From assembly GCA_963786955.1 (NCBI GenBank), contig CAWBAT010000005.1:1568001-1632000 (forward strand): 64,000 bases of DNA, read 5' to 3'. Source of the DNA: an uncultured Acidimicrobiia bacterium (GTDB lineage: Bacteria > Acidobacteriota > Terriglobia > Versatilivoradales > Versatilivoraceae). The position numbers and the translations under genes are program-made. This document shows, in pieces, positions 28,381 to 58,537 of the stretch; the first letter of the stretch is position 1; the number at the start of each line of letters is the position of its first letter. The notes under the pieces were generated by a model that saw nothing but the letters and a program-made list of their open reading frames with translations, had not been told where the DNA came from and made no database searches.

Positions 28381-28390
28381 GAGATTCTCT

Positions 28391-33757: not shown

Positions 33758-33822
33758 TTTATACTCTGGTGCGTTTCGAGTGTCAGTTCAGTACAGCTCA
33801 CCCGGTTGGTCAGAATTGCTCA
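33758..33822 (-). promoter_or_regulatory. Tandem Crp/Fnr-like sites with sigma70-type promoter (SYLF gene)
   Basis: + strand GTTCA-GTAC-AGCTC and GGTCA-GAAT-TGCTC 22 bp apart; minus strand CTGACA-17-TATAAA. Confidence 0.75.
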
Positions 33823-33872
33823 CTCAGTTGATGAAGGAAACACCCTTTCTGAAAGGTTGCGTGGGAACCGGT

Positions 33873-34673
33873 TCACGGCGAGGCTGGAGGCTCCTGGTCT
33901 GTCGGGATTCCGGACAGGTAACGGTAAAAAGCCACTGCCCGGTTGATGGAGGAGGCATCGTGCCCAGTGGTCAACAGGTTCGCGTTCTTGCCCGTGCGCA
34001 CAATGCTGTAATAACGCCAGATCTCAGGGGACTCGCGCTCGAGGAAGTAGATCGACTGCAACTCACCCGCTTGAAAAAGGGGCAGCTGCCAGTACCGAAT
34101 GGTGCTGATGTTTTCGGTATCGAAAACTGCCAGATCGGGTGAGGCGCTTCGAATGTGCATGCGGTAAATCGCCTTGCCCGCTAAGTTGTCCTCCTGATGA
34201 AAGTATAGGCTCTTGCCTTCGGCGATCTCATCCGGTGAGAAGTCATTGCGGCGTCGTTCATCGGTTGGTCCAGGCAAAGCATAGGCTTCGGTGATCAGTG
34301 CCTGCCATCGCTTGTGGGAGGTCGACCAATAGCGCATCCCCGCGAGTTCGGAAATCGCCATAATCCGGTGGAGCAAGACCTCGCCTCCGGAAGTATGGTG
34401 AAAGCGGGCAACTGTAACCACCAGTGTGGTAAAGCCAGGCGCAGTCCAACCCGTGCAGGCTGGAGGGATCCAGTCGCGGCCTAGGTCGGAGCGGTCCCAG
34501 ACTCTTACAGTGGGCGGTTGATCCAGGGCAGGATAGGCGGGGAACACTGCGTCTCCGCAGGGAGGATGTGGCCCAAGATCGGCACGGCTCGTAAATTCAA
34601 AGCACCAAAGCGTCGGTATCAATGCCAGGAGGAATACTCCGGGCCAGCTTCGATAAAGCGGCTTATGAGACAA
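33873..34673 (-). CDS. Hypothetical secreted protein (possibly DUF6675-like)
   Basis: 266-aa ORF with N-terminal hydrophobic segment; ISEL.GMRYWS motif. Confidence 0.6.
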   Translation of the reverse strand: MSHKPLYRSWPGVFLLALIPTLWCFEFTSRADLGPHPPCGDAVFPAYPALDQPPTVRVWDRSDLGRDWIPPACTGWTAPGFTTLVVTVARFHHTSGGEVLLHRIMAISELAGMRYWSTSHKRWQALITEAYALPGPTDERRRNDFSPDEIAEGKSLYFHQEDNLAGKAIYRMHIRSASPDLAVFDTENISTIRYWQLPLFQAGELQSIYFLERESPEIWRYYSIVRTGKNANLLTTGHDASSINRAVAFYRYLSGIPTDQEPPASP

Positions 34674-34756
34674 TTACTGCCAACTTTCATTTCCGAGGAT
34701 TTTTTCATTCAACGCTGCCGGGAGCGCGCAGCCCACGACTAGCGCCGCTGTTGACG

Positions 34757-36112
34757 TCACTTTGCAGGACTGGCCGCGACAATCCGAACTGGAGTCACCG
34801 ACTTCAGTTGATCCAGCGCTGTCAACACGCTCTGCCAGCCAACCTTGTCCTTTTTCGTCTCGATTGGAACAGAGAGGTCGGAATAGAAGCGCAGGATGTT
34901 GTCTCGCAGCTCCGTCGTGGTCAGATCGAATTTCCGCTTTGACAGTCTGGCCAGCAACGCTGCATACGTGTCGTCTGTCAGCGAGTATTCCCCTGCCTTG
35001 GTCCTATTGCCATCATCCAAATCACAATTGGGGGGCCGGAGTGAATCAGCGCGCACTTCTTTAAGAAAGGTCCGGTATTGATCGACGGTCGTATTGATGC
35101 TCTTGAAGTAAAGCTCCTCCGTCTGCGCGGTCGGGTTATTAAACGCGAGCGCCTTAAAAGGGCCAGTTTTGGGCATGTATCGCAAGAGCGTTGACAACAC
35201 CCGGGTGCCGGCTCCAGGCTCACTGTAGTCTTTTCCCCACTCCCTTTCATAATCAGAGCGCGAGAGACGGTACAGAAACTTTTGTTTCGCAAAAGAGGGC
35301 GTCTCGCGCATCAGGTCCTTCTTATGGGTTTGCAACGCAACCTGGGTCATCTCCGGAATCAGCCGGCTGATACTGAATCGATACGAGCCGATCGCGAGGT
35401 CCGCGCTGGGAAGCATTTCTTTCAACTCCACTCCGTAGACGATTGGAAAGACCCGCTCCAGCAGGGACTTGGACACTTTAAACCCGATGAAATCGTGATA
35501 CTGCTCTGACGCATAACGATTCTTTGCCACCTGCACCATATCGAACCCGAACTCTGTTTTCAGATGGGCCGTCTTGTCCTCCGCATATTTGACCGATTTG
35601 CCATACTTGGCCCGCAGCTTCGGATAGTAGACTGAGACGGCCTGGTTAACGGCCGGGTGGCCGGCAATGTCCGACGCATAGTGTGAAAGAGCGCCCAGCG
35701 CAAAGGCGTACTCGTTAGCATCCTGACTCTCTAGCCGCAGTTCGCGAACGAAGTCTCCGCTGCGAACATAATGCATCAGATTGCTGAATTCCGCCTTGCC
35801 GAACGGGTAATAGCCGAGATCCTGGATGACGGCGCCACCATAGGCGTACGCATGCGCTTCCTTGAGCTGGTCTTCCGACAATCCTGGATATCGCTCGAGC
35901 AGGAGAGGCCGAATCCCATCAGTCCAGAGCAAGTCTACGATTTCCTCGTGCGTGAGAACGGAGTATGCAAATGTGCCACTAGTGCCCATCAGCACGAAAA
36001 GGAGAAACATCAACACGCGGGTGCACAGGGGGCGCCGCCCCTCGCCTATGTGCCATAGCGCTAAGACTATGTAACGGGATCTCGTTAAATAAAAGGCCGA
36101 AGATTCTGCCAT
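34757..36112 (-). CDS. Zinc-dependent phospholipase C family protein
   Basis: AYSVLTHEEIVD, YGGAVIQDLGYYPFG, GALSHYASD, HLKTEFGFD; start may lie further downstream. Confidence 0.85.
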   Translation of the reverse strand: MAESSAFYLTRSRYIVLALWHIGEGRRPLCTRVLMFLLFVLMGTSGTFAYSVLTHEEIVDLLWTDGIRPLLLERYPGLSEDQLKEAHAYAYGGAVIQDLGYYPFGKAEFSNLMHYVRSGDFVRELRLESQDANEYAFALGALSHYASDIAGHPAVNQAVSVYYPKLRAKYGKSVKYAEDKTAHLKTEFGFDMVQVAKNRYASEQYHDFIGFKVSKSLLERVFPIVYGVELKEMLPSADLAIGSYRFSISRLIPEMTQVALQTHKKDLMRETPSFAKQKFLYRLSRSDYEREWGKDYSEPGAGTRVLSTLLRYMPKTGPFKALAFNNPTAQTEELYFKSINTTVDQYRTFLKEVRADSLRPPNCDLDDGNRTKAGEYSLTDDTYAALLARLSKRKFDLTTTELRDNILRFYSDLSVPIETKKDKVGWQSVLTALDQLKSVTPVRIVAASPAK

Positions 36113-36136
36113 AGATTTCTTGACCCATTTTCAAAT

Positions 36137-36687: not shown

Positions 36688-36879
36688 TCACCTTCCAACG
36701 TGGATATTGGCGAAGGAACTGAAAAGTCCAAAAATGTTTAGGAGCCACAAAACCACGGCAATAACCACGACTCCGTTGAGTATGCTCTTAATCTTACCGT
36801 CCATTGGAATGTAAGAATTGACGAGCCAGAGAAGAACGCCAATCACGATCAGGACCATCACTAATTGAATTAAAGGCAT
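36688..36879 (-). CDS. Thivi_2564 family small membrane protein
   Basis: LIVIGVLLWLVNSYIPMDGKIKSILNGVVVIAVVLWLL. Confidence 0.85.
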   Translation of the reverse strand: MPLIQLVMVLIVIGVLLWLVNSYIPMDGKIKSILNGVVVIAVVLWLLNIFGLFSSFANIHVGR

Positions 36880-36993: not shown

Positions 36994-37149
36994 CTAGATC
37001 TGACCTAACAGCAGCAGGATGACCAAAATCAGCAAGATTAGGCCCAGTCCGCCGCTCGGGTAGTAACCCCACTGCCGGCTGTGAGGCCAAGTGGGGAGTA
37101 CACCTAACAGCATCAATACCACAATGACGATCAAGACAGTTCCAAGCAT
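36994..37149 (-). CDS. DUF3309 family protein
   Basis: LPTWPHSRQWGYYPSGGLG signature; GGAGG RBS. Confidence 0.9.
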   Translation of the reverse strand: MLGTVLIVIVVLMLLGVLPTWPHSRQWGYYPSGGLGLILLILVILLLLGQI

Positions 37150-37222: not shown

Positions 37223-37741
37223 TTACTTCTTTTCCCGGTCTCCTCGGTCACTTTCGGGACTAACAGCTTCTTTGACACCCTCGCCCACTTTCTGGCCGGC
37301 GCGCCCTACACTTTTACCCATTTCTTTGCCCGCCGCGACGGGTTTGCCTTTCTTCATCTCGTGGCCGACTTCTTCACCACCCTTCCCGACCTCTTGGCCC
37401 GCGCTCTTAAAACTGCCGCCTACCGACTCCGGTCCAACTCCGAGTTTGCCGGAGGTTTCGGCATCAAGGTGTCCCGTGACGGGAAGTTTCTCTGACTTTT
37501 GATATTGGCGAATCCCTGCTCGGGTTTCCGGACCTGAGATGCCATCGATCTTCCCGTTGTAATAGCCTTTGTCGTGCAGGGTTTCTTGCACCTTCTTGAT
37601 ATCCTGATGATGCGAAACTGCCGGCTGCTCTTCGCTGGGCTTAGCCGCGGAAGCCAGAGGAATCAGGATTAGTCCCAACATCCCAGTCGTCAGAAAGCTG
37701 AAGACGACCCTGGTCCACACTACTTTGCTTGTTCGATACAT
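37223..37741 (-). CDS. Peptidoglycan-binding domain (PG_binding_1) protein
   Basis: Signal peptide; VQETL..KGYY.GKIDGI.GPETRAGIRQYQ...LPVTG.LD. Confidence 0.85.
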   Translation of the reverse strand: MYRTSKVVWTRVVFSFLTTGMLGLILIPLASAAKPSEEQPAVSHHQDIKKVQETLHDKGYYNGKIDGISGPETRAGIRQYQKSEKLPVTGHLDAETSGKLGVGPESVGGSFKSAGQEVGKGGEEVGHEMKKGKPVAAGKEMGKSVGRAGQKVGEGVKEAVSPESDRGDREKK

Positions 37742-37893: not shown

Positions 37894-37958
37894 ATGTTAC
37901 CCTTCGGGTCATTCAGTGTCAGTTCACTATTGCTCACATGTCTGATCAATAGTGCTCT
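37894..37958 (-). promoter_or_regulatory. Tandem Crp/Fnr-like sites with promoter (PG-binding/DUF3309/Thivi genes)
   Basis: GTTCA-CTAT-TGCTC and GATCA-ATAG-TGCTC 22 bp apart; CTGACA-17-TAACAT. Confidence 0.7.
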
Positions 37959-38049: not shown

Positions 38050-40479
38050 TCAAGGGAGCAACTGGCTCTGCGGAAAGAAAAAACTCGGTGGCCATTCAAC
38101 ATTTAGAAAACTCGATCGTCCCGGCCATGGATCGAATGCCCTGATCGCTGAAATGTTCAACTGGGGCATGTCTTCACCTTCCAGTGAATCGCCTTTCAGG
38201 TAAGCATTTATGCTCAGTTCCATTCGAGCTGGAAACTCCGGCGCAAGCCCTAAAAGCTTTGCGCGGTATACTCTGAGCATGATTTCTTTGAACACCGGAA
38301 GCGCAACTCTACCACCGGTTTCCTTGGGTCCGAGGGAGCGATTGTCGTCAAAGCCGATCCGGACGCCAACGGTGATTCCTTCGGGGCCATAAGTGCAGCC
38401 CACGAAGAGGGCATCCCTGAAGTCATTGGTTGTTCCAGTCTTTCCGATCACGGCGATCGGAAAACCGCTGGAATCCAGGGCATGAGCCGTGCCGGAAGGA
38501 ATTCGCACGACACCGCGCAGTCCTTCCTGAATGAGCGACAACGCGGAGTCGTCGACAGAGACCGGGGACCCGCCATGTTTGTCCTGGGCAGCTACCTCGC
38601 CCGAACCGCGGATGATCTTCGAGATCAGATACGGCTGGGTGAGAATGCCCGATGCCATCGTGCGGTACGCATTGGCCAGCTCCAGTAAATTCACTTCAGA
38701 AGCGCCCAACGCCGTTGTGGCGTATGGCTGCAGCGGCGTCTGGATTCCAAGAATCTGAGATGTCCGCAGGATGCTGGCGATTCCAATCCGCTTTGTGATC
38801 CAAATCGCGACGGCATTTCTGGATTCCGCGAGCGCCTGCCGGAGGGGGATCATACCCTTGAATTGACCATCGTAGTTTGAAATCCATTTCGCACTCTGTT
38901 TCCCTCCATCGGGAACGCTGATGGGTTTGTCGGGAACCATGGTGTCCAGGTCAAAGGGTCCTTGCCGAAACGCAGCGAGATAGACAATGGGCTTCATTGC
39001 GGACCCAGGTTGCCGCAGAGACTCCGTGACGCGATTGAAGTCGCTGTATGACGCGGAGCGGTCTTTGTAGAACTGGCGGCCACCGGTCTCGGCGAGGACG
39101 CTCGCATCACGATTTCTCAGCACCACAACAGAGCCCTGAATCAGCCCTTTGGAGGCCGGGCGGCGCCTCTCATACATCACAAGGCCGTTCTCCAGTGCCT
39201 CATTCACAATTTGCTGCACCCGCGCATCTACCGTCGAGTAAACCTGAATATGTCCCTGCAGGAGGTCATTGACACTGGGAGCATTGTCGAGGCCTTTAAG
39301 CTCTTCAAGGACACTCTTAACGACCGCAGCCGTCTGGAATATCTTGCCCTTGTTTCGGGGGGCTACCGGAATCGGCCTTTGCGCTGCTCGCTTCTCTTCG
39401 TCCACGGAAATAAAACCGTTCGCCGCCATGAGCGCGAGAGTTTGATTTCTACGGCGTAAGACCCTTTCGCTATCGTTCGCACAGGGCGCGTAGTAGCGGG
39501 GCGACTTTGCGATGCCTGCCAGCAGCGCTGCTTTGTCAGCATCCTCTACGGTTAATGTGGCGAGAGGCCGGCCAAAATAGTATTCGGCCGCCGTCGCAAA
39601 ACCGTACTGACCGTTTCCCATGTAAATAAAACTCGCATATCGGGCCAGAATTTCTTCCTTAGCGCGGCGCTTCGAACCGTACCGTTCCTGCATCGCTCTT
39701 TCGACCCACAACGACAATCGCATCTCTTCCATCTTCCGAACGAACATGTTGGCGTTTCGCGCGCCAATCAGGTAAGAAAGCGCGCGGGGTAAGAGGACGC
39801 CGTGACGGAGCTGGTCGCTGTTTTCTTGAGCTGTCAGGTTTTGGAAAACTGTCAGGTCGTGGAGAAAATAACCCCGCACGAGCTGTTGGGTGACAGTCGA
39901 TCCTCCTTGCGGGAAGATCGTTGGACTATTCCTGCCGTCTTCGGGCCCTAACCCTATCAGGCGAACCAACAAAGTTCCAATCCTGACTTTGCCCAGAACG
40001 CGAGGGATTCTGCAATAATCCATTCCGCTATGGGTGAAGAAGTTCTTGTCCTCGGTGGCAAGGATCGCATCACGAACGATGGGCGGGATATCCTTATACT
40101 TGATGATCCGCCGGTACTCTCTTGCCAATTCCATGAGCGGCTGGCCGTTGGCATCGTAGACATGGCCGATGCAAGGAAACTCAAAACGGGTGAATGGTCC
40201 TATGTCAGGCAGGTTGGTTCGGTCAAAATAGACGTGATGGAATCCGACTATAATGAGAGCGCTCGCAATCACTGTAGGGCCAACTACAAGGTAAACAAGC
40301 CAACGCAATCGGCCTAAGCGCGAACTGCGGATTCTCCGAACAACTCCTAAGCCAACCACCCGCAGAACTCTGAACCAAGTGAGCACAAAACTCGTCGAGC
40401 TCATTGCGCGTGTGGGTAAGGCTCCTCCGCGCTGGTTCCGCCTTCTCTTCTTTGCAGGGAAGATAACTTCGAACTTCAT
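38050..40479 (-). CDS. Class A penicillin-binding protein (transglycosylase/transpeptidase)
   Basis: EDKNF, GGSTVTQQ; SxxK (GSAMKP), SRN, KTGT. Confidence 0.9.
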   Translation of the reverse strand: MKFEVIFPAKKRRRNQRGGALPTRAMSSTSFVLTWFRVLRVVGLGVVRRIRSSRLGRLRWLVYLVVGPTVIASALIIVGFHHVYFDRTNLPDIGPFTRFEFPCIGHVYDANGQPLMELAREYRRIIKYKDIPPIVRDAILATEDKNFFTHSGMDYCRIPRVLGKVRIGTLLVRLIGLGPEDGRNSPTIFPQGGSTVTQQLVRGYFLHDLTVFQNLTAQENSDQLRHGVLLPRALSYLIGARNANMFVRKMEEMRLSLWVERAMQERYGSKRRAKEEILARYASFIYMGNGQYGFATAAEYYFGRPLATLTVEDADKAALLAGIAKSPRYYAPCANDSERVLRRRNQTLALMAANGFISVDEEKRAAQRPIPVAPRNKGKIFQTAAVVKSVLEELKGLDNAPSVNDLLQGHIQVYSTVDARVQQIVNEALENGLVMYERRRPASKGLIQGSVVVLRNRDASVLAETGGRQFYKDRSASYSDFNRVTESLRQPGSAMKPIVYLAAFRQGPFDLDTMVPDKPISVPDGGKQSAKWISNYDGQFKGMIPLRQALAESRNAVAIWITKRIGIASILRTSQILGIQTPLQPYATTALGASEVNLLELANAYRTMASGILTQPYLISKIIRGSGEVAAQDKHGGSPVSVDDSALSLIQEGLRGVVRIPSGTAHALDSSGFPIAVIGKTGTTNDFRDALFVGCTYGPEGITVGVRIGFDDNRSLGPKETGGRVALPVFKEIMLRVYRAKLLGLAPEFPARMELSINAYLKGDSLEGEDMPQLNISAIRAFDPWPGRSSFLNVEWPPSFFFPQSQLLP

Positions 40480-40800
40480 TGTGCCGCCCTGTCCGCCTGG
40501 ATTGCCTGGTATCGGGGATCTTGAATGATCAACTGCCGCACCTGGTCACGCAACTCCTGCCACTCATGGATGCAATAGCCGGCGTGATCTTCGGCCGTCA
40601 CTATGGGCCCACTTCTCTTCGAGGATTGCGATCACGGACAAAGTCTTCATTCGCTTTTGATGGGTCTGCTTGCCCACCTCCGACTCGGGCGCTTTTGCCA
40701 CGCGATCGAACTCTCCACAAGCCCGTGTCTTGATTGGGTTTCCCCATTCAGCTTGACTTACCTTGCCAATCATCTTTTCCCCCACAGCGACTGGGCTCCT
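40476..40800 (-). pseudogene. Frameshifted hypothetical gene coupled to the PBP start
   Basis: MKTLSVIAILEEKW then shifted frame IVTAEDHAGYCIHEWQELRDQVRQLIIQDPRYQAI; its TGA overlaps the PBP ATG; 5' end uncertain. Confidence 0.45.
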
Positions 40801-40936: not shown

Positions 40937-41002
40937 ATATTGCCCGTGTGGGGATTTGCGCGTCAGTTCAGTACTGCTCACGCGTCTGGTCAAAACTGCT
41001 CA
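40937..41002 (-). promoter_or_regulatory. Tandem Crp/Fnr-like sites with promoter (PBP unit)
   Basis: GTTCA-GTAC-TGCTC and GGTCA-AAAC-TGCTC 22 bp apart; CTGACG-18-CAATAT (weaker -10). Confidence 0.65.
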
Positions 41003-41323
41003 TCGCAGTTCATGAGGAGGGAACTACAGTGGGGGCCGGTGGAAATTACCTATGGTTGGACATGGAAACTTTATTGCGCTGGATTGTCCTCATCACCCCC
41101 CCATGGTGGGGAAGGTGTGAAAAGATTCCGCCGGGTCGGGGATGAAGCGTTGAGAATGCTTCATGCCTACAACATAATAGTAAGCCCTTTGAAATCATTG
41201 TAGGCCGCGTGACCTCACGCGGCGTTTTCCAATTCTTTCACACCTCCGGGGGGGAGTGGTGAAGTCTTGATACACCTTCACGGCGGAGTGGCAGGAAACT
41301 GCCGCACACGGCAGAACTTAATG

Positions 41324-41996
41324 TTACTCCGCACCGTCGCTCAGGACCACGCTGAGGAGGCCACTATGGACCTTCAGCCCGCCGTTGTCGCTGTAGTCGA
41401 TAAAGCCCAGCTTCCTGAACTTATTCATGAAATGACTGACCCGCGACCGGGTGGTGCCGACCATTTGCGCCAAGTGGTCCTGATTGACGCTGGGAAGTAC
41501 TGTTTCTGCTCTGCTTTCCTTGCCAAAATGTGCCAGCAGTAAGAGCATCCGAGCCAGACGCTTCTCACTGGAGTTGAAAAGCTGGTCGACGAGATCCGCT
41601 TCGAATCGGATGTTGCGCGAGAGCAGATGGATGACGAACAATTCCGAGAATGTCGTGCTGTTCGTGCAGCATGCGCGCCATCAGCGGCTTTTCAATCCTG
41701 GCCAGAGTGCAATCGGTCATGGCGGTGGCCGTCGCGATGCGCAACGGCTGGCCTGCCAGGCAGCCCTCGCCGAAGAAGTCACCGTCGCCCAGAATGGCGA
41801 CGATCGCTTCCTTGCCTTGTTGGGATGTCACCGCGAGCTTCACCTTGCCTCGTCGGAGGTAAAACACGGAATCCGCAGGTTCTCCTTGCCAGAAGATGGT
41901 GCGGTTCGCGCCATATTCTAAAACGGTTTTTCCGCGGGAGATTCCAGCTAGGAAAGGTTCCCAATCGACAGGCTTAATCTTCTTATTATTTGCCAT
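41324..41996 (-). pseudogene. Crp/Fnr family regulator with a 1-bp frameshift near 41650 (possible sequencing error)
   Basis: ORFs 41565-41996 and 41324-41641 together align colinearly with the intact paralog at 58772-59455. Confidence 0.85.
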
Positions 41997-42321: not shown

Positions 42322-42801
42322 CTAAGCGCTTCTGTACCGTTCCAGTGCGTTATTTACAATTCTCCGAAGTTCTTTTTTATCCAGAGGCTTGGCTAAGTAA
42401 TCATAGGCACCGCGTTGGAGGAACTCTATCCACAAATCCACATCGGCTAACCAGGAAATGCATATGACCTGCGTTTTAGGCGAGTTGTACTTAACAAATG
42501 CGATCAGTTCAAAGAATCTTTCAACAGGGCGAAAGACGTCAATCAAGGCAGCCGCAATTGGAGATTTCTCAACAAAGACTCTTTCAAGCTGATCTGGGGA
42601 ATCTTCAAACAACAGGTAGTGAGATTTCACGTTCAAAATTTCAGAGACGGCTTCTCGAACCTGGGGCTCTGCGTCGACGACTAAAACACTGGATAGACAC
42701 TGCGTCTCAACGAAATTCAACATGGTCTTGGCACTCATTAAAGCCTCTAAGATTGTTATTGATGTTGAGGGCCGCAGACAAACTAGAGTTGAATGATTCA
42801 A
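42322..42801 (-). CDS. Single-domain response regulator (receiver)
   Basis: VLVVDAE, ALIDV, GAYDYLAKP; start uncertain. Confidence 0.75.
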   Translation of the reverse strand: MNHSTLVCLRPSTSITILEALMSAKTMLNFVETQCLSSVLVVDAEPQVREAVSEILNVKSHYLLFEDSPDQLERVFVEKSPIAAALIDVFRPVERFFELIAFVKYNSPKTQVICISWLADVDLWIEFLQRGAYDYLAKPLDKKELRRIVNNALERYRSA

Positions 42802-42822: not shown

Positions 42823-43299
42823 TTATTGAGAACCCCGTGATATCAAGCCTTGGTTGGCCACGGCAGTGGTCAGGTTAATTTGGTGCTGCAGTTCATCGAG
42901 CAGAATCTCACCGATTTGCTCGGCCACGGCGTGCTGTCCTAATGCTTCACACTGACGAATACGTTCCTTGTACTGGCAAATGTTTTCATTCACGCTTTCA
43001 AGCATGAGACGTAGCATTTCCTCGAAGTTGTCGGATGTCCCCACCAGTTGAGATTGGATCTCTGACATTCCCCCCAGGGAATGGATCTCGTTGGCCATCA
43101 TGAGCGCATGCCGGAGCTCTTCTCGCACCTTTCTCCCAAGAACTTTAGCAATGTCTCTTTGGCCGGCTCCCTTGACCATCTGGGAGTAAGTTGCATAAAT
43201 CTTGATTGCCAGATACTGGCGAGAGAGATCCTCGTTCAACAGGTCAATTAACTTGCTCAGAGAGATTTCCGGTGCAGCAGGCTGTTGTTTGTTTCCCAT
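42823..43299 (-). CDS. Ferritin-like/bacterioferritin-like protein
   Basis: LIDLLNEDLSRQYLAI, EELRHA, Y.ERIRQCE, ILLDELQH. Confidence 0.8.
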   Translation of the reverse strand: MGNKQQPAAPEISLSKLIDLLNEDLSRQYLAIKIYATYSQMVKGAGQRDIAKVLGRKVREELRHALMMANEIHSLGGMSEIQSQLVGTSDNFEEMLRLMLESVNENICQYKERIRQCEALGQHAVAEQIGEILLDELQHQINLTTAVANQGLISRGSQ

Positions 43300-48628: not shown

Positions 48629-48703
48629 TGATGAGAGACTCCATCTGACGACCCGTCGTGTTACAACGTTCTCTCAAACAGATCCCCATACAGTGATTCC
48701 TGG

Positions 48704-48929: not shown

Positions 48930-49017
48930 GCTCTTTCGTCTCCGCTTTTAATGATGGGTTGATCTTCTTTAACTTCTGCCTCTCACCAGATCTGGCTGGC
49001 ATCTCAAGGCTTGTTCC

Positions 49018-49082
49018 TTTATACCCGGAAGGAATTTGCGTGTCAGTTCAGTACGGCTCACACGTTTGGTCAAAATTGCTCA
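49018..49082 (-). promoter_or_regulatory. Tandem Crp/Fnr-like sites with promoter (DUF3185-M48-CsbD unit)
   Basis: GTTCA-GTAC-GGCTC and GGTCA-AAAT-TGCTC 22 bp apart; CTGACA-17-TATAAA. Confidence 0.78.
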
Positions 49083-49087
49083 CCCAG

Positions 49088-49176
49088 TCTGAATGAACCA
49101 TGTATTGACTGATGGCAGTTAGTTCATCCGCCAGGAGTTCGTTCAACACCGTCAACAGCTTTTCGTTGCCTTTCAT
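49088..49176 (-). pseudogene. bfr: Truncated bacterioferritin (first ~29 codons)
   Basis: MKGNEKLLTVLNELLADELTAISQYMVHS with RBS; similarity ends abruptly. Confidence 0.8.
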
Positions 49177-52165: not shown

Positions 52166-52315
52166 CTAAGCCATCGAGCGACGGCCGCTGAGTAGATTGA
52201 AAAGAAACACAACGACCGCGATGACTAGCAGGGCATGAATGAAACCGCCCCCCACATGCATGGAAAAACCCAGCAGCCATAACACAAGTAAAATTCCAAG
52301 GATGGTATACAACAT
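52166..52315 (-). CDS. lmo0937 family small membrane protein
   Basis: MLYTILGILLVLWLLGFSMHVGGGFIHALLVIAVVVFLFNLLSGRRSMA; AAGGAG RBS. Confidence 0.85.
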   Translation of the reverse strand: MLYTILGILLVLWLLGFSMHVGGGFIHALLVIAVVVFLFNLLSGRRSMA

Positions 52316-52372: not shown

Positions 52373-53056
52373 TTACTCTGAAGCCGGCCGGTCCGTTAAT
52401 TCGAGTTTGCTGTCTTCTTTCCTTCTTCGATGGGCCGAATCAGGAGATGGAAGCACTGAACTCTCCCGGACTGGGACGTCGCTCCCACCGCCCGTAGCCG
52501 CGCGAGCCATTGGCCTATCGCTTTTGGCGTAGTCGGCGCTCGCCTCTGTGCTGGACGTGATATCCTGCGCTCCTGTCCGCTCCAGGATCTCCTTGGCGCG
52601 TTTCGTCCAGTCCAGATTGTCCGAATGCACTGAAAGGAGAATTCCACCTTCCTTTACCCGGCCCTCATAACGCTTGGCGACATATTCGGGAATCCCCATG
52701 CCAATCAGCGCACCTGTGATCCCGCCGACTGCCCCGCCCACGCCCATCCCCGCCAGGGCAGCCATGATTGGGCCAGCAACGATAAAGGGGCCTAATCCGG
52801 GGATAGCCAGAGCGCCGATGCCCGCCAACCACCCCAAGGCACCGCCCAATATTGCACCTGTTCCGGCGCCTGTCGCAGCACCCTCTGGAGATTTGCTGCC
52901 CTTCTCATGGCCGAAGTCTTTTGAGCCTACGTTCTGCGGAAACAGGACCGAGATGTCTGTGTTGCGAAATCCAGCCTCCTTCAAGGTATCGACCCCACGC
53001 TCCGCGCTGGAGTGATTGGGGTAGAGACCGAACACTGCAGTGTTTTTTCCTGACAT
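52373..53056 (-). CDS. General stress protein (YflT/DUF3341-like, glycine zipper)
   Basis: TAVFGLY, GFRNTDISVL, GALAIPGLGPFIVAGP, GIPEY.AKRYEGRVKEGGILLSVH. Confidence 0.85.
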   Translation of the reverse strand: MSGKNTAVFGLYPNHSSAERGVDTLKEAGFRNTDISVLFPQNVGSKDFGHEKGSKSPEGAATGAGTGAILGGALGWLAGIGALAIPGLGPFIVAGPIMAALAGMGVGGAVGGITGALIGMGIPEYVAKRYEGRVKEGGILLSVHSDNLDWTKRAKEILERTGAQDITSSTEASADYAKSDRPMARAATGGGSDVPVRESSVLPSPDSAHRRRKEDSKLELTDRPASE

Positions 53057-53240: not shown

Positions 53241-53305
53241 TTTATACCTTGAAGCATTGGGCGTGTCAGTTCAGTATGGCTCACTCGTTTGGTCAATTTT
53301 GCTCA
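53241..53305 (-). promoter_or_regulatory. Tandem Crp/Fnr-like sites with promoter (general stress protein unit)
   Basis: GTTCA-GTAT-GGCTC and GGTCA-ATTT-TGCTC 22 bp apart; CTGACA-17-TATAAA. Confidence 0.78.
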
Positions 53306-54020
53306 TCTCAGCTCAGGAGGAGGGAGACAGTTGGCTGGGACCCGTGGAAATTGGAGCCTGGGATCCAGAGGCTTCTTTTGCATCTGCCGATATATGATCC
53401 GGAGGATCGCCACGACCGGCACCGACAAAAAGCAGCCGGTGATCCCTGCGATCTGTCCGCCCGCCAGAAACCCGAAGATCACGACCAGGGCGTGGAACTC
53501 TGTGCCCGCACTCAACAGCTGGGGGGATAAAACATAATCCTGAAAACGCGGAACACGGCTAAGAAAAAGAAAATCCAAAGCTGCATTGGGTAGGAGTGAG
53601 AGAATGTCTCGCGAGTGATCAACGAGCTGCTTTCGCATGGTCGAGATTACCGTCTCCTTTATCGACTGAACAGACGGTGAAGCAATCGGTTTGTCCACTT
53701 GCTCGAGTTTGGAAAGAATTTCTGGAACCCTGGTCGCCAGTGCATTTGCCTGCGACACGACTCGAGAACCAATTTCAATACCAATGACAAACAGCAAAAT
53801 GACCAATGATAAATAGACGATGGCGAGAGCTGGTACCCTGGAACGTCCCGGCAGCCATTGATCAAGATAGTTCGCCAACGGCCAAAGCAGTCAGGCGAAC
53901 AGCAACGCCACTACAAAGATGAAGAGAGTTTCTCGAATGAGATAGACCATTATCCAGCAGTAAAAGAATGAACACTCCTGTCCAGGTCAAGCGTGCAGCA
54001 CGATGATCAAGACCAAGCAC
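53303..54020 (-). pseudogene. AI-2E family transporter remnant
   Basis: QDYVLSPQL..G.E.H.LVVIFG.LAGGQIAG..G.FLSVPVVAILRI; 5' part has stops and the central part is missing. Confidence 0.7.
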
Positions 54021-54133: not shown

Positions 54134-54550
54134 TTATTTTGCTTTGGCTTCAAGAGCAGTTTTCTCATTTTCGCTCTTGACGACCTCCTCATCGTCCGAA
54201 CCTTCGCGCAAGCGTTGAAACTCCTGTTGGAGACGCGCCAGTTCCTGATCCGAGAGGTCTTCGAGGTCCACGAGATGATTGCGTGCCCCCTCGACAGAGC
54301 GAATCAGTTCATCCAGCTTGAGGTGGATTGCCTTAGCGTCCCGATTTTGCGTATTCTGAATAAGGAAGACCATCAGAAAGGTTACGATGGTAGTGGCTGT
54401 GTTAATGACAAGCTGCCAGGTGTCGGAATATTGGAAGTAGGGCCCCAACAAAACCCAGGCGACAATTGCAGCCAGTGCAACGATGAATGCCCCTGGTGAG
54501 CCCACCGCCTGAGAGGTTGTATGGGAGAACTTACGAAAGACTTCATTCAA
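54134..54550 (-). CDS. Low-affinity iron permease family protein
   Basis: YSDTWQLVINTATTIVTFLMVFLIQNTQNRD.KAIHLKLDELIR. Confidence 0.92.
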   Translation of the reverse strand: MNEVFRKFSHTTSQAVGSPGAFIVALAAIVAWVLLGPYFQYSDTWQLVINTATTIVTFLMVFLIQNTQNRDAKAIHLKLDELIRSVEGARNHLVDLEDLSDQELARLQQEFQRLREGSDDEEVVKSENEKTALEAKAK

Positions 54551-54627: not shown

Positions 54628-54909
54628 CTATCCCCTGGTTCGTTTCGTGAAAAAACCTAGTAGGAGACCGGTGCCAAGAGCGATCAACAAAGCATTGAAT
54701 GGTTCATTTCGGGTATATTCAGTCATCTTTCCTATCATCCCCTTCCACCCTTCTTGGCGCACCTGGCCTAGAGTTTGTTTCGCGCTTTGCTTGGTACTTT
54801 CTACATAATCAACCACAGCGTCTAGCTTCTGGCCGGCTGCCTCGGCAGCTTCGGCAATTTTTTCTGCCGCGCGCTTACCGATCCCTTCACCTGCATTGAA
54901 ATTATCCAT
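54628..54909 (-). CDS. DUF883/ElaB/YqjD-like tail-anchored protein
   Basis: Helical N-terminus; YTRNEP..ALLIALGTGLLLG..KR C-terminal anchor. Confidence 0.7.
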   Translation of the reverse strand: MDNFNAGEGIGKRAAEKIAEAAEAAGQKLDAVVDYVESTKQSAKQTLGQVRQEGWKGMIGKMTEYTRNEPFNALLIALGTGLLLGFFTKRTRG

Positions 54910-55000: not shown

Positions 55001-55116
55001 ATACTACCCGTGAGCCAATTCGAGTGTCAGTTCAGTATGGCTCACCCGTTTGGTCAAAATTGCTCAAACAGATGAGCCATACTGAACTGACGAGCCGACA
55101 CCTCCTAGGTTATAAG
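55001..55116. promoter_or_regulatory. Divergent promoter pair with three Crp/Fnr-like sites at 22-bp spacing
   Basis: Sites start at 55030, 55052 and 55074; leftward CTGACA-18-TAGTAT, rightward CTGACG-18-TATAAG. Confidence 0.8.
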
Positions 55117-55197: not shown

Positions 55198-55935
55198 ATG
55201 TTAATCAAAAAAAATGGACTCCTGCTCATTGCTCCCACGTTACTTCTGGCTCTGTCTTTTCAGACGGGCTGCGCGACGAAAAAGTATGTTAAGCAGCAGA
55301 TCGACCCGGTCAGTGGGCGGGTGGATGAACTGTCAGAACTCAGTAAGGGGAACGAGAATGCCATTAAGGAAGTAGACAGTAGAGCACAGGCCGGCATTCA
55401 GACTGTCCAGGCTGCTGCCAACGAGGCGGACCAGAAAGCCATGGTGGCGACTCAAAAGGGAGAAGACGCTCAAAAGCTGGCCCAGAAGAATGAGACAGAG
55501 ATTGTCAGTGTGGAAAATAATTTCAACCAAAAGCTGAGCAACCTGGATACTTACAAGTCGGTGGACACTTCGAGCATCAATTTCAAACTCAACAGCGCCG
55601 AACTAAACGACGAAGCCAAGGCCACTTTGGATCAGCTAGCCTCCAAAGTAAAAGATAGCAAAGGCTATATGCTAGAGATCCAGGGGTTTACGGACAAAAC
55701 AGGAAATGACAGTCTCAACTTCGAGTTGAGCCAGGAACGGTCCCAAAGTGTCGTTCGTTACTTGTCTCAACAGCATCAAATCCCATTGTTCCGAATGTTC
55801 ATTCTTGGTTTGGGCTCCAGCAAAGAAGTGGAGAACAATAAGACGAGTAAAGGCCGTGCAGCCAATCGCCGGGTGGAGATCACGCTGCTCAAGAACGAGT
55901 TGGAGAGCACTCCCAGCGGCTCTGCTCAAAAGTAG
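55198..55935 (+). CDS. OmpA family lipoprotein
   Basis: TGCATKKYV lipobox, coiled coil, F..NSAEL, IQGFTD, LSQERS, NRRVE. Confidence 0.9.
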   Translation: MLIKKNGLLLIAPTLLLALSFQTGCATKKYVKQQIDPVSGRVDELSELSKGNENAIKEVDSRAQAGIQTVQAAANEADQKAMVATQKGEDAQKLAQKNETEIVSVENNFNQKLSNLDTYKSVDTSSINFKLNSAELNDEAKATLDQLASKVKDSKGYMLEIQGFTDKTGNDSLNFELSQERSQSVVRYLSQQHQIPLFRMFILGLGSSKEVENNKTSKGRAANRRVEITLLKNELESTPSGSAQK

Positions 55936-55964
55936 GATCACTCAAAAGATTTTTTTTTAGAAGC

Positions 55965-56720
55965 TCAATCCAGGGCAAGATCCTGTGTTCCACTGATGAA
56001 CGCCTGGGCGGTGGTGTGGCTACAAGGGACTAGGGACGCGGAGTGTCTACTCGACAACTCCGACATTCCTTGACCTAGACTGGCTGTGCGAGAGACTGGC
56101 TCGACTCGCGAGCCCTGTTTGTCGGCATAGACGCAGGTGATTTCTGCGCCTAAAAGAAGAATCTGTGCAGAGTAATAAAGCCAAGCCAGCAGAATGACAA
56201 GGGCATCCGTTGCTCCGTATGCTGGAGCCACCGTGGATCGGACTAGTTCAATCAGCGCTTTCCCGATCGTAAAGAGTAGCGATGCAACTGTCGCGCACCG
56301 ATCCACACGTCGCCCCAGGCAATTTCCGTGTTTGGCAGAAACTTGAAGATCACCGCGATCAGCATCGTAATGGCCCCAACGTGGGGAGAAAATTAACCGA
56401 CTCCAGCAAAAACATGGGCTTAGGAAGTAGATGCTTCATTAACTTTTCCACGACCCTTAACGCGGCGTTCGAAACGAGTGACACCATTGACAGAAAGCCC
56501 GTGCAGAGCACTAGCAGGTTGCTGAAGAACTCGTTGTAGCGGCGCTCTGTGAGCGTCGCCTCTCTGCAAGTTGTTGAGTTTCGGCGGTCACAGTCAGTCG
56601 CTACAGCATTAGCCACATGGCCTGCTGAGTTTTTCAGCAACCTGCTAGACTTGAAGAGCCTGCCCAGGAATCGGATGAAGTCCAAATTGAGGTGGTAAAG
56701 TGTCGAACAGGTGTGTGAAA
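55965..56720 (-). pseudogene. YihY/BrkB family remnant interrupted by a MITE
   Basis: LLFTIGK, AYGA...LVILL.WLYYSAQILLLGAE and GFL.MVSLV in broken frames. Confidence 0.7.
56511..56648. mobile_element. 130-bp MITE with 18-bp TIRs flanked by CTAG
   Basis: CTAG-CAGGTTGCTGAAGAACTC ... GAGTTTTTCAGCAACCTG-CTAG (1 mismatch); internal GTAGCG...CGCTAC REP-like pair. Confidence 0.8.
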
Positions 56721-56925
56721 AGGATGCCTGTAGAATGAAGCCAGAGTCCAACGCGGGCGCTTGAAAATCAACGATTTAGCTGTTACGGATTTTTTGCGGT
56801 GCACACCCATTTCGGGAAGCTTCTTCCACTTGTTGCTACACAGCAGTACTGGATGAATGTGGCTGTTCCAACGTCAGTAGCCAATTTAAAGGCGCGTGCG
56901 CATGAAAGATAATGAAAATAATACT

Positions 56926-57246
56926 CTATTGCACGCTCCTGATATCTACATCGAATAGCTCGTACCAGCTTTTCGCCCCCACTGTCAGCAGGTAAGAGGA
57001 GTTGTGTGGCTTGTATCGTGGCGACGTAACATTCGTAATAGGATATTCAATGATTTTCTGTTCCCTATCTAAACAGTTGGGGCAGAGAACGTTTCGTTGC
57101 CGCAGCCAGTAAGTTGACTGTGGCCTGTGGACTACAGCCACCGCCTGAACAATCTGCTCTGCGCTATTCATCCAGCCGCTCAGTTCCTCAGTTTCGTCTT
57201 CGTGAAGAATTCGGACCTGATATTCACTACCGTGGTTATGCGCCAT
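56926..57246 (-). CDS. Hypothetical protein
   Basis: ORF with GGAGG RBS before MAHNHG; contains CPNC. Confidence 0.55.
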   Translation of the reverse strand: MAHNHGSEYQVRILHEDETEELSGWMNSAEQIVQAVAVVHRPQSTYWLRQRNVLCPNCLDREQKIIEYPITNVTSPRYKPHNSSYLLTVGAKSWYELFDVDIRSVQ

Positions 57247-57645
57247 GTGCTTTCCTCCTAGACAGCTCATTTATCAGTCCTCGTAACGAAGGTGGGGTAG
57301 ATTTGCAGCTGTTGTAGTGTTTGAGCTTGAGCCGAAACCGGCTAGCAAATGATCCGATACCAGTGGGAGAGAGAAACCAAAAATTCAGTCTCAAAAGACC
57401 ATCTTGGGGTCACTTACAATCAGGATGTCCAGTAACGAACGTTTTTTCAGGACGATGAAAATCACCAGACCAAGCCCACCCTGCCACTCCGATATAGTCA
57501 GCTTACCAGCCGCCGGTCAGTCGGTTTCCGCTCACCGCGCTCTGTCGAAGGTTACTTATTACGGGTGGTGGGATCATAAACCAGTCTTGCAATGCCTCCG
57601 GGGCCGCCCCAATGCCGGATTTGTAACATTTTGGTTGCGTTTGTA

Positions 57646-58305
57646 TTAGTCGTACAGGACCACGTTGAACAGGGCATTATGGACTGTTAACCAGCCGTTA
57701 TCGCTGTAATCGATAAAGCCAAGTTTTCTGAACTTAGTCAAGAAATGACTGATTCGCGACCGGGTGGTGCCAACCATTTGTGCCAAGTTGATCTGCTTGA
57801 CTCTGGAAATTACAGTTTTAGCTGTATATTCCTTGTCAAAGTGAGCCAGTAGCAAGAGCGTCCGGGCCAGACGCTTCTCGCTAGAGTCGAAAAACTGGTC
57901 GATCAGATCCGCTTCGTATCGGATGTTGCGGGAAAGCAGATGTATGACAAACATCTCCGAGGCGTCGTGCTGTTCGTGCAGCATGCGCACGATCAGCGGC
58001 TTCTCAATCCTGACCAGAGTACATTTCGTTATCGCGGTAGCCGTTGCTATGCGCACTGGCTGACCTGCCAGGCATCCCTCGCCGAAGAACTCACCTTTGC
58101 CCAGAACGGCGACGATCGCTTCCTTCCGTTGTTGGGATGTCACGACGAGATTCACCTTGCCTCTTCGCAGGTAGAACACGGAATCTGCAGGGTCTCCTTG
58201 CGTGAAGATATTACGGTTCGCGTGGCATTCTAGAGCGGTTTTCCCGCTGAAGGTTCCAGCCAAGAAGAATTCCCAATCGACAGGTTGGGCTTTCTTAGGT
58301 GCCAT
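57646..58305 (-). CDS. Crp/Fnr family transcriptional regulator
   Basis: IFTQGDPAD, FFGEGCL, SEKRLAR, LAQMVGTTRSRISHF. Confidence 0.92.
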   Translation of the reverse strand: MAPKKAQPVDWEFFLAGTFSGKTALECHANRNIFTQGDPADSVFYLRRGKVNLVVTSQQRKEAIVAVLGKGEFFGEGCLAGQPVRIATATAITKCTLVRIEKPLIVRMLHEQHDASEMFVIHLLSRNIRYEADLIDQFFDSSEKRLARTLLLLAHFDKEYTAKTVISRVKQINLAQMVGTTRSRISHFLTKFRKLGFIDYSDNGWLTVHNALFNVVLYD

Positions 58306-58471
58306 TACAACCTCCCTCTGTTTGTTGAGGACAAGTCCAAGAGATTAAGAGAAATCAATTTTTGGCGGCATCCTGGGATCGCAGCAATAGAGCTCGTAGG
58401 GACATATCGCTCCGACCCCCTGAGGCCCGCCTCCCATCAGATCCTGGCTGGCAGCTCCAGTTACAATTCTT

Positions 58472-58537
58472 ATACTACCTGTGGAGGAATTCGCGCGTCA
58501 GTTCAATATGAAACACATGGCTGTTCAAAATTGCTCA
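58472..58537 (-). promoter_or_regulatory. Tandem Crp/Fnr-like sites with promoter upstream of a Crp/Fnr gene
   Basis: GTTCA-ATAT-GAAAC and GTTCA-AAAT-TGCTC 22 bp apart; CTGACG-18-TAGTAT. Confidence 0.72.

Follow-up and report, generated by a model that had tools for sequence, protein, structure and literature searches.

FNR and FixK sites are 14-bp inverted repeats of the 5-N4-5 type, usually centered at -41.5, and FNR has an N-terminal Cys cluster. Genes for CsbD, lmo0937-family, DUF3309, Dps/ferritin, OmpA-like and YtxH proteins are typical members of the SigB, RpoS and EcfG regulons. DevR/DosR of M. tuberculosis binds cooperatively to adjacent tandem palindromic boxes, an arrangement essential for induction of stress and dormancy genes (PMC3177182). 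Here, we describe a two-site promoter element in a stretch of 64,000 nucleotides (the window) from an uncultured acidobacterium of the Terriglobia, for which a preliminary description had proposed a Crp/Fnr regulon of nine promoters at eight intergenic loci. We consider it probable that the tandem sites are putative operators of a dedicated regulon under a new Crp/Fnr subfamily, defined by the recognition helix GTTRSR(V/I)SHF, that activates stress-type genes. A literature search found no description of this regulon.

All nine promoters are present where they had been placed. In each, the distal 14-mer reads GAGCA-N4-TGA(C/T/A)C and the proximal 14-mer reads GAGC(A/C/T)- or GTT(C/T)(A/C)-N4-TGAAC, and the two start exactly 22 bp apart. 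CTGAC(A/G) begins on the final C of the proximal TGAAC and is followed, 17-18 nt later, by a -10-like hexamer (TATAAA three times, GATAAT, TAACAT, TAGTAT twice, TATAAG and CAATAT); the hexamers are exactly those reported previously. The positions given there (33758, 37894, 40937, 43737, 49018, 53241, 55001 and 58472) mark the lower coordinate of each -10 hexamer, and the ninth promoter, on the plus strand, has its -10 at 55111. CTGACA, TATAAG/A and a 17-nt spacer are near consensus, which is unusual for activator-dependent promoters and would fit a repressor equally well.

The promoters, on the minus strand except for P8, are as follows. P1 (33758..33821; distal 33808-33821, proximal 33786-33799, -35 CTGACA 33781-33786, -10 TATAAA 33758-33763) precedes a Ysc84/SYLF gene (32928-33635). 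P2 (37894..37957; distal 37944-37957, proximal 37922-37935, -35 37917-37922, -10 TAACAT 37894-37899) precedes genes for PG_binding_1 (37223-37741), DUF3309 (36994-37149) and Thivi_2564-family membrane (36688-36879) proteins, and its predicted operon would continue through same-strand genes to about 33873. P3 (40936..41001; distal 40988-41001, proximal 40966-40979, -35 CTGACG 40961-40966, -10 CAATAT 40937-40942) serves a 73-aa ORF (40564-40785) and a class A PBP (38050-40479). P4 (43737..43800; distal 43787-43800, proximal 43765-43778, -35 43760-43765, -10 GATAAT 43737-43742), whose proximal site is the one perfect palindrome that had been claimed, GTTCAATATTGAAC, serves a 100-aa ORF (43376-43678), a ferritin/Dps-like protein (42823-43299), a receiver-only protein (42322-42738) and a frameshifted crp copy. 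P5 (49018..49081; distal 49068-49081, proximal 49046-49059, -35 49041-49046, -10 TATAAA 49018-49023) precedes a 124-aa ORF (48555-48929) and an M48 peptidase gene (47816-48586), with an operon that may extend through same-strand genes to CsbD (46156-46392). P6 (53241..53304; distal 53291-53304, proximal 53269-53282, -35 53264-53269, -10 TATAAA 53241-53246) precedes genes for a 227-aa protein (52373-53056) and an lmo0937/DUF5670 membrane protein (52166-52315). P7 (55001..55065; proximal 55030-55043, -35 55025-55030, -10 TAGTAT 55001-55006) serves a 93-aa ORF (54628-54909) and a low-affinity iron permease (54134-54550); it shares its distal site, 55052-55065, with the divergent plus-strand P8 (55052..55116; proximal 55074-55087, -35 CTGACG 55087-55092, -10 TATAAG 55111-55116), which precedes an OmpA-domain protein gene (55198-55935). 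P9 (58472..58536; distal 58523-58536, proximal 58501-58514, -35 CTGACG 58496-58501, -10 TAGTAT 58472-58477) precedes the gene for Crp paralog A.

A 40-nt pattern allowing up to 3 mismatches gave 10 matches in the window, where 0.01 ± 0.10 were expected from 100 shuffles; the tenth, at 8090, is weak and has no -35 or -10. With a single-site matrix, which does not assume any spacing, the previously noted 22-bp distance recurred in 22/22 same-strand neighbor pairs of the island in this genome and in 79/81 such pairs from islands in 12 further genomes. Of 122 sites, 113 are accompanied by a -10 with at least 4/6 matches at a spacer of 16-19 nt (17 nt at 76, 18 nt at 28), and 115 have the start of a same-strand ORF within 330 nt. 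The distance between the proximal site and the -35 was constant over the 90 distinct sites tabulated (one per sequence); because the site sets were chosen with the matrix, the conservation reported for the sites is partly circular. The left half-site alternates between GAGCA/C and its exact complement GTTCA, and the shared middle site of P7 and P8 is used in both orientations, which together suggest a dimer-type site. A symmetric homodimer would not lead one to expect the regular inequality of the half-sites, with GAGCA as the left half and TGACC/TGAAC as the right; an alternative parsing of the conserved positions is as direct TGAnC repeats at 10/12/10 bp. With a transcription start 7 nt past the -10, the sites would be centered near -41.5 and -63.5, values that depend on the predicted -10 boxes; the distal center would lie 2 bp from -61.5, the usual class I position (PMC5957442).

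A 46-nt matrix derived from the nine sites of the window finds 15 two-site promoters in the genome that score above 42 (the next match scores 15.8), all within about 58 kb of contig C5 (1601824-1659796). Six of them are outside the window, so that the nine promoters first described stand as part of a larger regulon in a single island that reaches 28 kb beyond the window. Of the stress gene set that had been listed, Pfam or NCBIfam confirmed eight families (CsbD, DUF3309, lmo0937/DUF5670, OmpA, Ysc84/SYLF, ferritin-like, PBP and M48), while DUF883 had no match at E <= 0.01 in the ORFs scanned. The targets proposed for the 15 promoters are genes of stress type, among them envelope, small-membrane-protein and iron-storage genes, as well as much of this dispensable 58-kb island, which is absent from the syntenic place in two congeners. 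The plus-strand genes kaiC (60061-61788), kaiB (61785-62096) and a second kaiB (62123-62449), followed by a PAS/HisKA_3 kinase gene that starts at 62507 and extends beyond the window, up to a NarL-type response regulator gene (L001:99-755), are context rather than a required part. No DNA-binding family besides Crp recurs in the islands examined.

The genome encodes four Crp copies, all in the island. The three paralogs with a TTRSR(I/V)S helix that had been recognized in the window are all there; one of them (41321..41996, minus strand, helix TTRSRVSHF) is broken, its frames changing at residue 116 (1-116, 116-225), near 41650. Paralog A (57646..58305, minus strand, 219 aa) has cNMP_binding and HTH_Crp_2 domains and the helix GTTRSRISHF, is 70% identical to the copy just beyond the window, and its gene is itself a target of the two-site motif. 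Paralog B (58772..59536, minus strand) matches the other copies from 59449, with an uncertain upstream start codon, and shares 89% identity with the fourth paralog (L001:798-1472, minus strand), which lies outside the window after the NarL-type response regulator. Paralog B, a candidate master regulator, lacks a motif of its own; its end is about 235 bp upstream of P9. By sequence, the best PDB match is M. tuberculosis CRP (Rv3676; E 2e-19, residues 25-203, both domains).

Across the 401 genomes of the class, the two-site pattern matched 470 times in 81 genomes, vs. 9 times for the reversed control, which makes it class-wide rather than genome-specific; at least 2 matches occur in 51 genomes and at least 5 in 34, grouped in islands and representing at least five families. 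The best E-values for the Crp query are bimodally distributed, and 54 of the 401 genomes have an ortholog (E <= 1e-90). The motif is found in 49 of these 54 vs. 32 of the 347 others, and at least two matches in 43/54 vs. 8/347; related genomes are not independent, so Fisher values overstate this co-occurrence. In family f6, the 5 genomes with the motif at up to 2 mismatches are 5 of the 6 that carry the ortholog, and in 4 of the 5 the motif begins 67-68 bp past the end of the Crp match, with only 1-2 pattern matches per genome. Crp copies of 65-85% identity are present in the fetched islands of 9/12 genomes, and in 6 loci the first gene downstream of the motif is a Crp paralog. All 29 loci with a Crp of at least 67% identity have a helix ending in SHF (one NHF), and 20 of them have a motif within 2.5 kb; in the sister group (58-63% identity, SFF or, once, SLF), a motif lies within 2.5 kb in 0/50 loci. 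When aligned to M. tuberculosis CRP, this H/F position falls on one residue, which we take to be the base-contacting R185. This co-occurrence, the adjacency to crp, the six paralog loci and the sister group support the Crp/Fnr reading of the preliminary description. Four genomes (G011, G265, G301, G381) have 2-5 motifs and no Crp ortholog; these are fragmented assemblies, most of whose motifs are carried by short contigs or lie close to a contig end. G233 and G345 have a Crp of only 60% identity, two motif promoters remain in the congener G002, whose Crp is only 43% identical, and G157, G188, G297, G305 and G333 have the ortholog and no motif match. Since motif and Crp are both island-borne, linkage could yield co-occurrence without binding.

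The sites, their fixed geometry and conservation, and their co-occurrence and adjacency with the Crp subfamily are observed; Crp binding, transcription starts, activation rather than repression, cooperativity and any signal or nucleotide effector are inferred. One Crp dimer would occupy each 14-16-bp pseudo-palindrome (TGnnCA-N4-TGnnCA), so that two dimers would sit side by side, 22 bp apart, with the proximal dimer abutting the -35 hexamer. By analogy with class II/III CRP promoters, the dimers most likely act by recruiting or activating the housekeeping RNA polymerase, and, with at least one paralog being a target itself, the circuit may act as a feed-forward or self-amplifying switch.

The same proteins might instead be repressors that cover -70 to -35, block sigma region 4 and the alpha C-terminal domains, and are relieved by stress. 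The proximal site touches the -35, by E. coli rules a CTGACA -35, a 17-nt spacer and a TATAAG/A -10 near consensus would need no activator, and control of one's own paralog is equally common among repressors and activators. We nevertheless regard repression as unlikely: the core promoter is overlapped by one base at most, and the constant -35 distance and fixed site spacing are needed for contact-dependent activation, not for steric repression. Moreover, -41.5 and about -62 are the classical activating positions (PMC5957442). It is also quite improbable that another protein binds the sites, the likeliest being the NarL-type response regulator of the kaiC-kaiB-kaiB-kinase operon in a DevR/DosR-like role, with the Crp genes as cargo or targets. 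This regulator and its kinase do lie between two Crp genes here, orthologs of 63-66% identity occur in the islands of 3 other genomes (Kai genes in 2), the conserved bases are readable as direct repeats, and tandem boxes are the hallmark of the DevR regulon (PMC3177182). Yet the fetched islands of 9/12 genomes contain no ortholog of at least 63% identity, the best response-regulator match is 34-36% identical in 3/5 f6 genomes with motif and Crp ortholog, KaiC is found in 33/401 genomes and in 7/51 of those with at least two motifs, and the motif stands directly behind Crp in genomes with 1-2 pattern matches.

Alternatively, a promoter cassette of ~200 bp may have been copied from gene to gene and moved between genomes with the island, in which case the repeats need not be protein sites. 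Conservation does reach ~65 nt upstream (the crp 3' flank where crp is upstream) and into a ~45-nt leader, the island's absence in the two congeners fits such transfer, and the Crp is as similar to its counterparts in other families (76-80% identity) as to some within its own family. Common descent is nonetheless a highly improbable account, as the site positions are near invariant while neighboring cassette positions vary freely, the spacing is fixed while -35/-10 spacer and leader lengths vary, many promoters keep the sites without the flanks, and the sequence is kept across at least five families. Similarly, TGAAC-TGACA plus TATAAG could be an extended promoter read by an alternative sigma factor, the upstream repeat having some other role. 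The stretch around the -35 is indeed the most conserved part of the element, the gene set is like that under SigB, RpoS or EcfG in other phyla, and, in another genome, the first gene behind one motif (L057:8039-8677) resembles a sigma factor by eye, a resemblance that Pfam did not confirm. This, too, is very doubtful: the islands contain no recurring sigma factor gene, the hexamers and the 17-nt spacer are as expected of housekeeping promoters, and the second identical site 22 bp upstream and the Crp co-occurrence would be left unexplained. Under the favored reading of a Crp-activated regulon, the promoters offer a testable handle on the control of stress-protection genes in the Terriglobia, an abundant soil group.

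Compared with known systems, the island Crp proteins share with E. coli CRP the superfamily domains (cNMP_binding and HTH_Crp_2), the 16-bp TG-N12-CA core and, in their predicted -41.5 center, the class II position (PMC5957442); as at class III promoters, a second upstream site lies on about the same helix face. On the other hand, TGAGC/TGGTC/GTTCA takes the place of TGTGA as the half-site, the dimers would be direct neighbors (22 bp), the distal one being centered at -63.5 and not -61.5 or -93.5, the -35 is near consensus, and the predicted targets are stress genes of one island instead of catabolic genes. The paralogs score 53-57 bits against the NCBIfam CRP cut-off of 266, and Ile replaces Ser/Thr in the Arg-Ser/Thr pair that binds the cAMP phosphate. 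M. tuberculosis CRP (Rv3676) is a distant relative with another recognition helix (R-E-T-V-N-K vs. R-S-R-(I/V)-S-H here), not an ortholog. The 14-bp 5-N4-5 inverted repeat and its predicted center at -41.5 also resemble FNR/FixK sites, but the half-site differs from TTGAT, the helix lacks the E--SR motif, an N-terminal Cys cluster of the FNR kind is missing, and the NCBIfam FNR score is 24-25 bits vs. a cut-off of 228. The tandem adjacent palindromic boxes are shared with M. tuberculosis DevR/DosR (PMC3177182); however, the box sequence is unrelated, and DevR is a NarL-type response regulator, whereas here the NarL-type neighbor is dispensable and the cognate family would be Crp/Fnr. Finally, the gene content (CsbD, lmo0937-family and DUF3309 small membrane proteins, Dps/ferritin, OmpA-like, YtxH) is like that of SigB, RpoS and EcfG regulons, with the difference that here a transcription factor is proposed to act at housekeeping-type promoters and that all targets lie in one island.

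The nine promoters that the preliminary description attributed to the window are all present at the places it gave, and the positions by which it designated them (for instance, 49018 and 53241, both on the minus strand, and 58472) are the low ends of the -10-like hexamers. On the coding strand, each promoter carries (i) a distal 14-mer, GAGCA-N4-TGA(C/T/A)C; (ii) a gap of 8 nt; (iii) a proximal 14-mer, GAGC(A/C/T)-N4-TGAAC, or GTTCA/GTTTC-N4-TGAAC in two cases; (iv) a -35 element, CTGAC(A/G), the first C of which is common to the proximal site; and (v) a -10-like hexamer, which follows the -35 element after a spacer of 17-18 nt at all nine promoters, as had been described. The conserved bases of the site are TGnnCA-N4-TGnnCA, i.e., TG-N12-CA, in keeping with the CRP-family geometry proposed for it. 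A 40-nt pattern allowing up to three mismatches matches the window 10 times, vs. 0.01 matches expected from shuffles. The tenth match (8090-8129, plus strand) has three mismatches and lies 25 kb to the left of the island, 165 bp upstream of a 1092-aa open reading frame. It has neither CTGACA nor a clear -10 and is therefore not counted among the promoters; it is probably a chance match or a relic.

A 46-nt matrix built from the nine window sites was scanned over the 5.65-Mb assembly. Fifteen matches score above 42, the next best scores 15.8, and all 15 lie on the contig that holds the window, between positions 1601824 and 1659796. The proposed regulon of nine promoters thus stands for the window, but its total is 15, as six more lie past the window's right end. 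The matrix scan that had been suggested for this genome reveals no genome-wide scatter of the promoter element, which is confined to this one island. When a matrix of the single 16-bp site is used, the 22-bp step is seen in all 22 same-strand neighbor pairs of the island and in 79 of 81 pairs in 12 other genomes, so that the spacing originally noted holds well beyond the window. Elsewhere in the genome, single sites number 348, about twice the 154 of a reversed-genome control; none of the best 13 outside the island has the promoter architecture, and 12 of these 13 fall within long open frames.

On its left, the island is bordered by a stretch (window 22394-30049) that is syntenic in two congeners, with 74-96% protein identity, and in neither is this stretch followed by the island genes. 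These data indicate that the island starts near 30.05 kb of the window and is dispensable within the genus. A GH94 query from the right flank found no match in the two congeners. Neither tRNA nor integration marks were found in the island, the Pfam scans contain no integrase, and window positions 30000-64000 hold no known RNA family at E <= 1. Several island genes appear split or truncated: a transketolase is in three pieces, a PLD-like gene is in two, one crp gene is frameshifted, and ferritin, AI-2E transporter, and BrkB fragments are also present (L001:5461-7270 and L001:14079-15155, in the DNA directly right of the window; window 49048-49176, 53303-53878, 55965-56306, and 41321-41996). The split genes may reflect either decay of the island or assembly errors.

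The element is conserved across the class. In a sample of 401 genomes, the two-site pattern has 470 matches in 81 genomes, vs. 9 matches in 8 genomes for the backwards pattern; at least two matches occur in 51 genomes and at least five in 34. The matches are clustered: a single G035 contig carries 13, and a stretch of 18 kb in G003 carries 8. Islands from the 12 other genomes, which represent five families, retain both sites, CTGACA, the 17-nt spacer, and a TATAAG-type -10. The island studied here, 20 stretches from the 12 genomes, and 29 loci from named records were pooled, and a score cut-off of at least 34 yielded 122 sites. A -10 with at least four of six matches at a spacer of 16-19 nt is found at 113 of these, and 115 have a same-strand open reading frame starting within 330 nt downstream; the predicted leaders are long (median 129 nt). 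The related loci (n = 79) belong to Terriglobia and Acidobacteriota, metagenome-assembled genomes among them.

The proposed regulators, Crp/Fnr paralogs encoded in the island, are present, as had been noted, and number four: 41321-41996 (frameshifted), 57646-58305, and 58772-59536 in the window, and L001:798-1472 beyond it. They are the sole homologs in the genome at E <= 1e-8. The three intact copies have a cNMP_binding domain (E 1e-19 to 1e-22) and an HTH_Crp_2 domain (E 2e-9 to 6e-11). The paralogs are members of the Crp/Fnr superfamily outside CRP, FNR, and NtcA, as their scores lie below the NCBIfam cut-offs for CRP (PRK11753; 57.5 and 53.1 bits vs. 266), FNR (25.3 and 24.2 bits vs. 228), and NtcA (49.8 and 62.8 bits vs. 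244.95). FNR has a close N-terminal group of cysteines for its iron-sulfur center; the three intact copies have no N-terminal cysteine cluster, and only scattered single cysteines occur. In the cAMP phosphate-binding cassette, FGE and the arginine are kept in most copies (one has FGV), and isoleucine replaces Ser/Thr. The closest solved structure is Mycobacterium tuberculosis CRP (E 2e-19), in which R-E-T-V-N-K aligns to R-S-R-I-S-H of the recognition helix, which is not of the R-E-x-x-x-R type. Likewise, the half-sites are TGAGC/TGGTC/GTTCA and not the TGTGA of CRP.

The suggested co-occurrence test was carried out by searching the 401 genomes with the Crp copy at L001:798-1472. The best E-values form two modes with an empty interval from 1e-86 to 1e-90, and an ortholog is present in 54 genomes. 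The motif tracks this subfamily, being present in 49 of the 54 ortholog genomes vs. 32 of the 347 others, and at least two matches occur in 43 of 54 vs. 8 of 347. No weight is placed on P-values here, since related genomes are not independent, and part of the co-occurrence could come from linkage alone, because motif and Crp ride the same island. Six genomes in the Crp and KaiC tallies carry a flag as unpublished (G293, G117, G090, G253, G327, and G109); none of the conclusions depends on a single one of these. Where an ortholog is lacking, most motif matches are single ones with three mismatches, near the control rate; five of the 54 ortholog genomes have no motif match. A contrast within one family of 74 genomes, f6, is more telling than the overall co-occurrence: the five genomes with the motif at no more than two mismatches are five of the six with the ortholog. 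In four of these five, the motif starts 67-68 bp past the end of the Crp match, and two fetched f6 loci have the same order of crp, motif, and target as the window. Of the 12 other genomes, 9 have Crp copies in their fetched islands, and at six loci the gene that directly follows the motif encodes a Crp paralog. Four genomes have two to five motifs and no ortholog (best E 1e-7 to 1e-16). These are assemblies of 290-900 contigs, with the motifs mostly on short contigs or near contig ends; G233 and G345 have only a 60% identical Crp, which in G345 lies within the island. The congener G002 retains a homologous segment (PLD, a 304-aa protein, and an ABC transporter) with two motif promoters on its contig C18 (L068:9051, minus strand, and about 10559, plus strand), one with a site spacing of 23 bp and the other with weak -35 and -10 hexamers. 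The closest Crp of G002, at 43% identity, is not an ortholog, and the two promoters may be a natural case of orphaned operators.

The recognition helix was compared over 79 loci from named records. All 29 loci whose Crp is at least 67% identical have the helix GTTRSR(V/I)SHF (one ...NHF), and the motif lies within 2.5 kb in 20 of them, scoring at least 35 in 18. The 50 loci with a Crp of 58-63% identity (L119-L168) have GTTRSRVSFF (one ...SLF), and in none is the motif found near the gene. By sequence comparison, it is a single residue of the predicted recognition helix, His vs. Phe, that tracks the presence of the site. According to the helix alignment to M. tuberculosis CRP, this position would correspond to R185 of E. 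coli CRP, a base contact. A subset of the sister genes is followed, after the Crp stop codon, by a different conserved non-coding block about 170 nt long (e.g., L121, L125, and L135), which is possibly their own operator region, though no site could be made out in it.

Other binders were considered as well. A direct-repeat, OmpR/PhoB-like arrangement gave no match at the spacing first assumed. The half-sites are unequal, and this inequality is conserved, contrary to what would be predicted for a symmetric homodimer. However, the left half-site alternates between GAGCA/C and GTTCA, the latter being the exact complement of the right half TGAAC, and the divergent promoters at 55001-55116 contain three sites at 22-bp steps, of which the middle one is common to both promoters in both orientations. 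A two-fold symmetric dimer fits these two features, and the direct-repeat reading is set aside because of them. A NarL-type response regulator is also encoded nearby: a KaiA-less kaiC-kaiB-kaiB cluster followed by a PAS/HisKA_3 kinase and this regulator lies between two Crp paralogs (window 60061-64000 and L001:99-1472). An ortholog of the regulator was not found in three of five genomes with both the motif and the Crp ortholog, which argues against it as the binder. In G035, G063, and G347 and at locus L058, no more than a few kb separate KaiC from a Crp of the same clade, and in G062 KaiC lies beside motif sites (L065), with no Crp in the fetched part. KaiC is present in only 33 of the 401 genomes, which argues against an obligatory role. 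The KaiBC hourglass is reportedly the subject of an existing paper (PMC10076222).

With a Crp paralog as the predicted binder, two dimers would sit side by side, 22 bp apart, the proximal one abutting the -35. Given a transcription start 7 nt behind the predicted -10, the site centers would be at -41.5 (or -42.5) and -63.5. According to one study (PMC5957442), the preferred positions of CRP motif sites in E. coli are -41.5, -61.5, and -93.5. The core promoter is already near consensus, which is the main argument for the paralogs acting as repressors. On the other side, the distance from the site to the -35 and the 22-bp step are constant, whereas the -35/-10 spacer and the leader vary in length, which favors contact-dependent activation and cooperative loading. 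Judged from the promoter sequences, activation is the probable sign of control and repression considerably less likely.

Conservation extends beyond the two sites and the promoter hexamers. Among 90 distinct motif promoters, 33, from different families, have a conserved leader of about 45 nt directly behind the -10 (e.g., window 58418-58469 and 48963-49014, L001:13887-13938, and L066:3446-3497, all on the minus strand). The leader contains a Shine-Dalgarno-like run, located well before the actual start, as well as a short inverted repeat around GGATC. Folding analysis does not support a hairpin: RNAalifold gives no consensus structure, and a hand-drawn helix has 66.7% paired cells vs. 67.2% in shuffles, with no support from covariation. 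The leader has no match in Rfam, and CsrA, a candidate reader of its GGA, was not found in this genome (93% complete). On the upstream side of the distal site, a stretch of about 65 nt is likewise conserved at the nucleotide level in many copies (e.g., window 41002-41070 and 53305-53370, upstream of the third and sixth promoters; also L061, L059, and L066) and, where crp lies upstream, is its 3′ flank. A divergent small open reading frame behind the distal site was rejected: no conserved peptide follows its Shine-Dalgarno-like run, and in the alignments the conserved stretch varies at all codon positions. Because leader and upstream flank are both conserved, they seem to have been duplicated as whole promoter cassettes, and both may hold further signals.

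Of the gene set proposed to lie behind the promoters, the identities of CsbD, DUF3309, lmo0937, OmpA, SYLF, ferritin-like, PBP, and M48 are confirmed by Pfam or NCBIfam, whereas DUF883 was not found at E <= 0.01 in the open reading frames scanned. Predicted targets in the window are Ysc84/SYLF, a class A PBP, an iron permease, an OmpA-domain protein, and a Crp paralog; a peptidoglycan-binding protein with DUF3309 and a Thivi_2564-family membrane protein; a Dps/ferritin with a receiver protein; an M48 peptidase operon seemingly running to CsbD; and an lmo0937/DUF5670 membrane protein. Outside the window, they are PRC-barrel proteins, an AI-2E-type transporter fragment, a metallophosphatase operon, a GGDEF cyclase, and several proteins without a family. 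Behind the promoter at contig position 1659796, no gene with a Pfam annotation precedes the diguanylate cyclase (L002:6648-7247, minus strand), and as a target the cyclase would tie the regulon to c-di-GMP output. In the cross-genome comparison, the genes that recur in first position encode lmo0937-family proteins (9 sites), a 227-278-aa protein (7), Crp (6), a peptidoglycan-binding protein (5), and several exported proteins without assigned function. Encapsulated-ferritin-like, YtxH, and receiver proteins and a sigma-54 activator occur at one or two promoters only, and most first genes have no Pfam family. Elsewhere, such genes belong to SigB, RpoS, or EcfG regulons.

Taken as a whole, the following picture is tentative and rather unlikely to hold in every part: a Crp-family activator, binding as an adjacent-dimer pair and amplifying its own paralog, would be the master switch of a self-contained, dispensable general-stress/dormancy island of uncultured Terriglobia, in place of SigB, RpoS, or EcfG, and would in some lineages be fed by a KaiA-less KaiC-KaiB timer and a kinase encoded next to the Crp genes. 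In soil and peat, Terriglobia (Acidobacteriota) rank with the most abundant bacteria. The analysis yields a concrete cis-element with a candidate regulator, a potential new DNA specificity for the Crp/Fnr family, and a ready-made regulon list consisting mostly of uncharacterized small proteins. It becomes possible to annotate hundreds of metagenome-assembled genomes at the level of promoters, and metatranscriptomes could be read for an on or off state of the stress island. Our search found no literature on a Crp regulon in Acidobacteriota or on stress-gene control in Terriglobia, and PMC8510549 mentions neither Acidobacteria, nor tandem sites, nor a consensus.

Two known systems invite comparison. 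The DevR/DosR dormancy regulon is alike in architecture and physiology, and tandem boxes are its hallmark (PMC3177182); at least two adjacent palindromic boxes lie beside the -35 here as well, a likeness purely of architecture. In contrast, DevR/DosR has a cognate NarL-type regulator, a feature that the island promoters do not share. CRP/FNR class II promoters would work alike, and to their arrangement the island promoters are predicted to add a second, upstream dimer.
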